Shown: one piece after another, positions 62,510 through 62,740 of the stretch
Numbering within the stretch: position 1 is the first letter of the stretch
Layout: every line of letters starts with the position of its first letter
Virus record (IMG/VR): IMGVR_UViG_3300037484_000435
Span: 1 to 64,000 of that record
Origin: a virus
Taxonomy: Duplodnaviria; Caudoviricetes
Direction: 5' to 3' (one strand)
DNA: 64,000 nucleotides
Program-made: the position numbers and the translations under genes
The notes under the pieces: model-generated
Told to the model about the DNA's origin: nothing
Seen by the model: the letters and a program-made list of their open reading frames with translations, nothing else
Databases searched by the model: none

Positions 62510-62740
62510 CTGGGTCTCAGCCCCCAGTATAAAGAACTGGTTGGGTGGCGGAAGAAAGTAAAGGACACTCAGCCTTTACTACCTCTGGGTCTTAACCCTC
62601 AGGCTAAAGAATTGGTTAAGTGGCGGCGAATAGGGACCTGTGCCAACTCGTCCTGACTTCCTCTGGGTCTCAATTCCCAGGCTAAAGAACTGATTGAGTG
62701 GTGGGGAGGGAAAGCGTTTACCAAAACGCCGCACCCCAGT
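62510..62740 (+). repeat. Three tandem H-type pseudoknot units (period 75-78 nt), each followed by a variable hairpin
   Basis: Units start at 62510, 62585 and 62663; S1 CTGGG/CCCAG, S2 7 bp with covariation, A-rich L3 (T/G)(A/C)TAAAGAA(C/T)T. Confidence 0.75.

Follow-up and report, generated by a model that had tools for sequence, protein, structure and literature searches.

The window analyzed here comprises positions 1 to 64000, the first 64 kb, of the 545,322-bp IMG/VR virus record IMGVR_UViG_3300037484_000435 (Caudoviricetes). Close to its right end, at 62510–62740, lie three tandem repeat units that an earlier reading of the letters, referred to below as the original prediction, had described as pseudoknots of an undescribed repeated RNA. 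When the sequence was re-read, the coordinates, the two stems, the loops, the TGG(C/T)GG motif, the spacer hairpins and an upstream TATAAT were all present as that prediction had given them. What it missed is the decisive context: the array is located within a cluster of Y-RNA-like units upstream of a phage Ro60 gene. The cluster occupies a tract of ~6 kb, from 60851 to ~67100, in which homing endonuclease genes are almost the only coding sequence; the tract contains Y-like RNAs and tRNAs and ends at the Ro60 gene (genome positions 67097–68683, + strand; Pfam matches to TROVE, 2.6e-22, and vWA_Ro60, 2.3e-9).

The units start at 62510, 62585 and 62663, a spacing of 75 and 78 nt. Each begins with CTGGG and a T, followed by a heptamer, by C(C/T)CAG and by an A-rich linker of 11 nt; a second heptamer, complementary to the first, then TGG(C/T)GG and a unit-specific hairpin complete the series. 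Folded as an H-type pseudoknot, CTGGG forms stem 1 (S1) with CCCAG, CTCAG and CCCAG in units U1, U2 and U3, respectively; the single T is loop 1 (L1), loop 2 (L2) has a length of 0 nt, and the A-rich linker is loop 3 (L3). Stem 2 (S2) reads CTCAGCC/GGTTGGG, CTTAACC/GGTTAAG and CTCAATT/GATTGAG in the three units, and 21 of its 21 pairs are standard, three of them being G·U. In U1 (62510–62551, + strand), as defined from the sequence, the repeat family and the pair counts, S1a occupies 62510–62514, L1 62515, S2a 62516–62522, S1b 62523–62527, L3 62528–62538, S2b 62539–62545 and UGGCGG 62546–62551. U2 (62585–62626, + strand) has one G·U pair in S1 and seven Watson-Crick pairs in S2, and its UGGCGG is followed by CGAA. 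U3 (62663–62704, + strand), in which S2 is followed by UGGUGG, is the ortholog of unit V4 of a related phage introduced below (90% identity over 61 nt). The 52-nt cores of the three units are 67–81% identical.

A hairpin is found in every spacer, in agreement with the original view that the structured spacers set the array apart from a CRISPR array, and this layout is common to all spacers of both phages. The spacers start with GGYGG and finish with C-Y-Y-CC, and both ends can pair around the small hairpin. Spacer 1 (62552–62584, + strand) contains GTAAAGG (62558–62564)/CCTTTAC (62573–62579), has a 3' end reading ..TACC-T and can be closed by a GG..CC base helix. In spacer 2 (62627–62662, + strand) the hairpin is GGGAC/GTCCT, and the 3' end, GACTT-CC-T, equals the CTT-CC 3' signature of neighboring Y-like scaffolds. 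Spacer 3 (62705–62739, + strand) has GCGTTT (62714–62719)/AAACGC (62724–62729) and then CACCCC, which is able to pair with the preceding GGGG. Pairwise alignment delimits a further 3' domain common to both phages (62740–62822, + strand), where the remains of a fourth, decayed unit are found together with two hairpins and the closing stem TCTGCT/AGCAGA; TTGG/CCAA of a hairpin in this domain becomes TGGG/CCCA in the related phage, a compensatory change.

The TATAAT (62492–62497) does not hold up as a promoter: a sigma-70 scan found no -35 partner for it, and it is not conserved in the related phage. Scans for sigma-70 promoters and for terminators returned none for the array, and no + strand terminator. 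Between the array and the preceding Y-like unit (unit 7) lies a 240-nt stretch poor in open reading frames (ORFs) (62261–62500), with several local hairpins. It is not conserved in the related phage, which has an unrelated 61-aa ORF there instead; when the small ORFs at 62308–62487 (here) and L009 5729–5914 (numbering of the relative's locus) were compared, they were not homologous.

The related phage was recognized by its Ro60 protein. A homologue 80% identical to the Ro60 encoded here is present on a 658-kb metagenomic contig of a related huge phage, and at the syntenic place this contig carries five homologous units (V1 to V5, at L009 5920, 5976, 6045, 6113 and 6184). The distance between array and Ro60 in the relative is 3.8–4.1 kb, and by synteny BLAST it has no counterpart, at this place, of the LAGLIDADG gene that follows the array here (63154–63960). 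The number of units is three here and five in the relative, and a metatranscriptome contig shows a third variant with ~2. A homolog search, which the original prediction had named as a check, has thus yielded five more units, and their S2 changes are largely compensated.

The alignment of all eight units, three from here and five from the relative, is the main evidence for the fold. In this alignment, 97.9% of the pair cells are standard (97.5% in S1 and 98.2% in S2), and seven of the 12 pairs have changes on both sides (two of five in S1 and five of seven in S2). The observed pairing and covariation were attained by 0 of 500 shuffles, and slid controls, in which the partner was moved by 1–3 columns, gave pairing of only 30–51%. 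In S1, G-C is replaced by A-U at two positions; S2 has eight different sequences across the eight units, and within each unit it pairs without an internal mismatch. We also tried to pair S2b of each unit with S2a of the next one, as in an ordinary nested Y-like stem, and rejected this arrangement, which has mismatches at nearly every junction in both phages.

Tests at the level of pattern and energy gave a mixed picture. A degenerate unit pattern had three matches in the window, and the same three in the whole 545-kb genome, compared with 0 in 100 shuffles. The bare 5/1/7 descriptor is not special, with ~65–98 perfect matches per strand genome-wide versus 38–51 in shuffles. Nested-only folding energies of the array were no better than those of shuffles (z from -0.7 to +0.4); nested folding flips between S1 and S2 and the program cannot score pseudoknots, so that energy is neutral either way. 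Confidence in the fold therefore comes from comparative covariation and not from geometry or folding energy. We conclude that each unit is an H-type pseudoknot of 5-bp/1-nt/7-bp geometry, both helices of which have been kept in evolution. This conclusion is well supported, and with it the original claim of a repeated H-type pseudoknot with compensatory S2 changes is borne out by covariation over eight units in two phages.

Six of the pair cells are G·U. On the minus strand these would be A·C, and hence the RNA corresponds to the + strand, which is also the strand of every gene and tRNA in the region. The same cells bear on the idea that the array is a DNA-level repeat, for example a set of protein-binding iterons or recombination sites, with no function as RNA. 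Direct repetition in tandem, amid many homing endonuclease genes, would suit such an element. However, compensatory changes have occurred in two interleaved helices, the G·U cells make sense only in + strand RNA, and the region is covered by metatranscriptome contigs; we find a purely DNA-level role scarcely credible.

In all searches made here, the family was known from one phage clade only. An nhmmer profile of the eight units found no further copy in the 545-kb genome and none in 79 other Ro60-encoding IMG/VR loci (best E 8.5); at the same 79 loci a structural descriptor with a YGG tail gave scattered single matches only. Four primary-sequence patterns run against IMG/VR returned four chance single matches, then 0, 0 and 0. 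Two patterns in JGI metagenomes returned 0 matches and then five unrelated perfect tandem repeats, one pattern in GTDB genomes returned 0 matches, and BLASTN against INPHARED phages gave no match. Rfam had no match on the array, either in a gathering-threshold scan of the window or in a scan of 60800–64000 at E ≤ 10. At the sensitivity of the latter scan, ToxI, CptI, preQ1, transfer-messenger RNA (tmRNA), ribozymes and exoribonuclease-resistant RNA (xrRNA) families are ruled out. The Rfam check that the original prediction had suggested was thus run and agrees with its view that the RNA is undescribed. A tmRNA was also sought with ARAGORN, which found none in the window, and Rfam had no tmRNA match.

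Two functions raised in the original prediction fare badly against these data. One is an RNA akin to the type III antitoxins (ToxI, CptI or AntiQ), or a phage decoy of such an RNA, acting against a host ToxN-type endoribonuclease. Phage pseudo-ToxI decoys are known, and the array is indeed a tandem pseudoknot-forming repeat in a phage. However, units of 75–78 nt that are 67–81% identical, with a drifting S2, would not be tolerated by a sequence-specific toxin, and Rfam has no ToxI or CptI match at E ≤ 10. Pfam and PADLOC detected no ToxN, AbiQ or CptN-like protein nearby, the downstream features being a Y-like unit and the LAGLIDADG gene, and a terminator-toxin layout is lacking. PF13958 had no match in the genome, a weak point because the control matched in no genome. 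With unit length and identity, the missing toxin gene and Rfam all speaking against it, we regard the antitoxin or decoy as very improbable. The other suggestion was a ligand-binding aptamer, considered here as a tandem of aptamers akin to preQ1-I or other small pseudoknot classes. There is a superficial likeness to class I preQ1 aptamers in S1 (CUGGG/CCCAG) and in the A-rich L3, and the conserved single-stranded residues (the U of L1, UAAA in L3 and UGG) could line a pocket. Against this, the stems adjoin directly, L2 being 0 nt, so that a pocket between them is lacking; S2 extends over a full 7 bp, none of the riboswitch families in Rfam matches at E ≤ 10, and the next feature downstream is a noncoding RNA (ncRNA) unit, with no ORF or expression platform to be regulated. 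Aptamers thus appear to us highly unlikely.

The surroundings of the array point elsewhere. From its end to the Ro60 start (67097) there are 4.36 kb, with two homing endonuclease genes between and both features on the same strand, which places the array within the published proximity range for Y RNAs (about 4 kb or less, same strand as the Ro60/TROVE gene; PMC4201824). On the strand of Ro60, 0.8–1.4 kb upstream of it, lie the two best YrlA (RF02553) matches of the genome, with scores of 38 bits that stay below the gathering threshold and are due to the tRNA-like part. One layout is common to at least 10 scaffold units in this phage and 15 in the relative: an outer stem usually ending in GAG, a bulged C/U, GG-YG, an inner stem, TTACTTC, a variable cargo, ...CTT-CC and the outer 3' strand. 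The array is flanked by two of these Y-RNA-like scaffold units. The upstream neighbor (62151–62260, + strand) has the outer stem TATTGAG/CTCAATA, a bulged C, GG..CC, TTACTTC and a cargo with a T-arm; the downstream neighbor (62826–63031, + strand) reads AATCGAG-TGGTG ... CTT-CC-CTCGATA. No matching outer strands were found for a Y-like scaffold that would enclose the whole array.

Comparison of the pseudoknot units with these scaffolds revealed a common motif. S2b together with UGGYG (GATTGAG-TGGTG, for example) corresponds to the scaffold 5' handle, as in TATTGAG-CGGTG, AATCGAG-TGGTG and TATTGAG-TGGCG, and the other S2 strand (CTCAAT..) corresponds to the scaffold outer 3' strand. Like the scaffold outer stems, S2 keeps CTC/GAG at the end that faces the motif. 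A handle weight matrix trained on 25 scaffold 5' motifs only placed the sites of U1, U3 and U2 at ranks 22, 30 and 196 of 1.09 million genome positions; the true scaffold sites rank 1–105. The pattern GAG[CT]GG[CT]G occurs 24 times on the + strand of the genome, including six times within the 6.3-kb array of ncRNAs. UGGYGG is found in seven of the eight units (the relative has the motif in four of its five), and the full GGCGAA in U2 only.

The 3' tail of the units, and their geometry, also bear on a possible mimic of the tRNA acceptor/T-arm, in which S2 (7 bp) on S1 (5 bp) would make a 12-bp minihelix read by RNase P or another tRNA enzyme. The 7 + 5 bp geometry is seen directly in the sequence, the neighboring YrlA-like RNAs bear permuted tRNA-like domains, and RNase P cuts H-type pseudoknot substrates in loop 1 (PMC12710915). 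However, cleavage of pseudoknot substrates by RNase P RNA in vitro needed a 3' RCCA (PMC12710915), which none of the units has, the tail being UGGYGG in seven of eight, and both ARAGORN and the Rfam tRNA model fail to see the units. A tRNA mimic is accordingly improbable.

What is known of Ro60 gives the shared handle a possible meaning. According to Chen et al. (PMC4201824), the 5' motif GNCGAA(N0-1)G of bacterial Y RNAs resembles GGUCCGA, the sequence that Xenopus Ro60 touches, and it is mostly with the 5' strand that Ro60 makes contact. A minimal stem-bulge-stem RNA binds the Ro60 of Thermus phage phiLo at 16.6 nM, and the phiLo Ro60-RNA complex engages host PNPase (PMC12135203). We suggest that the three units are modules of one ncRNA of the phage Ro60/Y-RNA system, a tandem pseudoknot-capped Y-RNA handle and candidate Ro60 partner, which is the best-supported reading, plausible and just short of probable. 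Each module would carry the stem-bulge-stem handle that is the presumed Ro60 docking site of the scaffold RNAs. This predicted handle comprises a helix with ..GAG/CTC.. at its end, a bulged pyrimidine (U), a 5' strand bearing GGYG, a short base helix mismatched at its center, and a small hairpin.

The topology proposed for the module differs from that of an ordinary Y RNA, in which the basal helix is made from the 5' and 3' ends of the RNA. Here the partner strand lies upstream, in the loop of a 5-bp hairpin; the basal helix is thus S2 of the H-type pseudoknot, with S1 stacked on S2 as a cap. Such a permuted topology has no free ends, and therefore handles could be strung head to tail. To our knowledge, the Y RNAs described to date are single stem-loops, with the Ro60 site in a helix formed by their own two ends. 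The array RNA may dock several Ro60 rings, or may be cut into minimal Y RNAs devoid of cargo, and either way gating or titration of Ro60 and its nuclease partner would result. In its most specific form, which we put forward more guardedly, the proposal is that of a circularly permuted, concatenable pseudoknot-capped handle with a predicted stoichiometry of three to four docked Ro60 rings, or one that is diced into cargo-less 'gate-only' Y RNAs; its physiological role would be to titrate or organize Ro60 and host PNPase while the phage infects its host.

Several observations weigh against the docking proposal. U2 is alone in having the published CGAA core, whose place is taken by GGCGGAAG, GGUGGGGAG and similar sequences in the other units; with the handle matrix the units of the relative score weaker (ranks 277–867), and its last unit, V5, is without UGG altogether. 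Neither the TTACTTC of the scaffold nor any cargo domain is found in the pseudoknot units. The 3' strand of the handle is discontinuous in them, and the GG..CC base helix can be drawn in more than one register: in V1–V3 a shifted register fits better, and it covaries (A-U versus G-C). The likeness of the motifs could be mere common descent, through duplication of a scaffold unit. The family was not found at the 79 other Ro60-encoding viral loci searched. Finally, contigs from RNA libraries, considered next, cannot prove transcription, nor do they give strand, ends or abundance.

These contigs came from three sediment metatranscriptome runs from three studies; they are short, 90–99% identical, and were placed along 60001–76000 (16 kb, numbered as L008 below). 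Coverage by these contigs, which come from close relatives, extends over the ncRNA array, Ro60 and the gene that follows, and the homing endonuclease genes are uncovered. The 6 kb beyond L008 9613 (genome 69613) are almost uncovered, with two bins below 0.5 and then tRNA matches from 15487. This coverage pattern argues for RNA over contaminating DNA. A 98-nt contig coincides with the Y-like unit at 62151–62260, U3 is present in two of the runs, and one 435-nt contig spans the whole array, from 62437 to 63077.

A contig that runs from upstream of the array to beyond it also suits the main rival of Ro60 docking, namely an element that stabilizes or punctuates a polycistronic ncRNA precursor. Its knots would stall exoribonucleases (PNPase, RNase R/II or RNase J) or mark processing sites that separate the Y-like RNAs, without binding Ro60. 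Mechanical stability is a known trait of compact H-type knots whose L3 is A-rich; the array has Y-like units on both sides, within a long tract free of ORFs, and its copy number varies among relatives (3, 5 and ~2). However, such an element leaves the conserved UGGYG and the CTC/GAG end of S2 unexplained, there is a single array per genome despite more than 15 ncRNA units to protect or separate, and no nuclease-resistance family in Rfam matched. We consider the stability element unlikely, if worth keeping in mind.

Some of the library contigs have unusual joints at Y-like units. At 61360–61606, 62109–62263 and L008 4038–4205, the 3' end of a Y-like unit is followed, within a contig, by the 5' start of that unit again, and in one of these back-joints the bridging letters are the 5' handle of the unit. 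Tandem duplication in relatives, a loop of the assembly or a circular RNA could each give rise to such a joint. At 62817–63029, a contig of a close relative skips Y-like unit 8 almost exactly (211 nt, with four letters between); therefore single units come and go between strains, or are excised.

If the docking proposal is true, the Ro60 site is a portable module, several Ro60 can be arrayed on one RNA, and huge phages have diversified the Ro60 ribonucleoprotein far beyond its cellular versions, since over 15 Y-like RNAs that differ in cargo are encoded at this one locus. The 42-nt motif, which is compact and comes with compensatory variants provided by nature, would also be an easy system in which to test what Ro60 reads, be it the 5'-strand motif, the bulge or helix continuity. 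Should the link to Ro60 fail, the array would still be a new, well-supported structured RNA motif of narrow distribution.

The scaffold cluster has further features of its own. A second conserved scaffold motif, (G)TTACTTC, directly follows the 5' strand of the inner stem (60851–63031; genome 64036–66340); it is missing from the pseudoknot units and may be a second protein-binding or tertiary-contact site. At 61069–61212 (core 61117–61180) we noted a circularly permuted tRNA-like body, with a T-arm, a loop-closed acceptor stem and a D-arm, which gives a partial YrlA match and was miscalled tRNA-Tyr(ata) by ARAGORN. Homing endonuclease genes (LAGLIDADG and HNH) are scattered among the ncRNA and tRNA genes: a LAGLIDADG gene adjoins the 5' edge of the tract (60027–60851), a second one, assigned by Pfam, lies in the ncRNA array (63154–63960, + strand), an HNH gene is at genome 64295–64903, and there is another homing endonuclease gene at genome 69953–70762. 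The start of a tRNA-Asp, at 63951, overlaps the last codons of the second LAGLIDADG ORF.

Elsewhere in the window, the stretches 27045–28483 and 26278–26709 include a HEARO RNA (RF02033, 125 bits) directly before a 415-aa RRXRR + HNH ORF. In this huge phage the pair represents an RNA-guided nuclease of IscB-like type and its guide RNA. Just upstream of it is a gene for Archease, the cofactor of RtcB, and RtcB itself is encoded at genome 473977–475053. Among at least 17 phage tRNAs there is one with a CUA anticodon (47126–47202; tRNA-Pyl according to ARAGORN), an amber suppressor; it may hint at TAG recoding late in infection.

Compared with known systems, the array shares single traits with several classes of RNA. 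The preQ1-I riboswitch (RF00522) is alike in its 5-bp P1, in the A-rich 3' tail within a small H-type knot and in a similar P1 sequence; unlike it, the array has neither an L2 pocket nor a regulated gene, its S2 is 7 bp long, and cmscan gave no match at E ≤ 10. The type III antitoxins ToxI, CptI and AntiQ are likewise tandem pseudoknot repeats, phage decoys among them, but their repeats are near-identical and ~34–45 nt long, whereas the units here are twice as long, divergent and without a partner toxin gene. The covariation of the units shows that selection has acted on the fold and not on a sequence read by a toxin. The knots PK2–PK4 of tmRNA and the upstream pseudoknot domain of tobamoviruses are consecutive knots near tRNA mimics, and their knots, too, are interchangeable in sequence. 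The array differs from these strings in having no tag ORF and no terminal CCA-bearing tRNA-like structure, in the near-identical geometry of its knots and in its Y-like handle.

The geometry of the single knot is reportedly that of the T2/T4 gene 32 leader pseudoknot. As in this and the other compact H-type knots, such as those of luteovirus and retrovirus frameshift sites, S1 and S2 of the units are coaxial, a single nucleotide (L1) crosses the 7-bp S2, L2 is lacking, and the A-rich L3 occupies the minor groove of S1. In contrast to them, the array lies outside an mRNA leader or coding region, is tandem, and continues from each knot into a conserved UGGYG and a hairpin.

Y RNAs (YrlA, YrlB and Yrn1, RF02553; Yrl1 and Yrl2 of phiLo) are the class to which its setting relates it. 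In a Y RNA the stem is formed from the two ends of the molecule, whereas the corresponding helix of the array is S2 of a pseudoknot and thus permuted; literature searches turned up no pseudoknotted Y RNA. Y RNAs also have an effector module, a large internal loop or tRNA-like domain, where the array has only spacer hairpins of 5–7 bp, and the array further differs in its three- to fivefold concatenated modules and its poorly kept CGAA core. Cmscan of 62500–62830 gave no YrlA match at E ≤ 10, whereas two of the neighbors score 38 bits. Nevertheless, the array, like the Y RNAs, lies on the same strand as Ro60, a few kb upstream of it and among YrlA-like RNAs, and it has a stem-bulge-stem with a G-rich motif on the 5' strand, UGGYG being comparable with GNCGAA and GGUCCGA.

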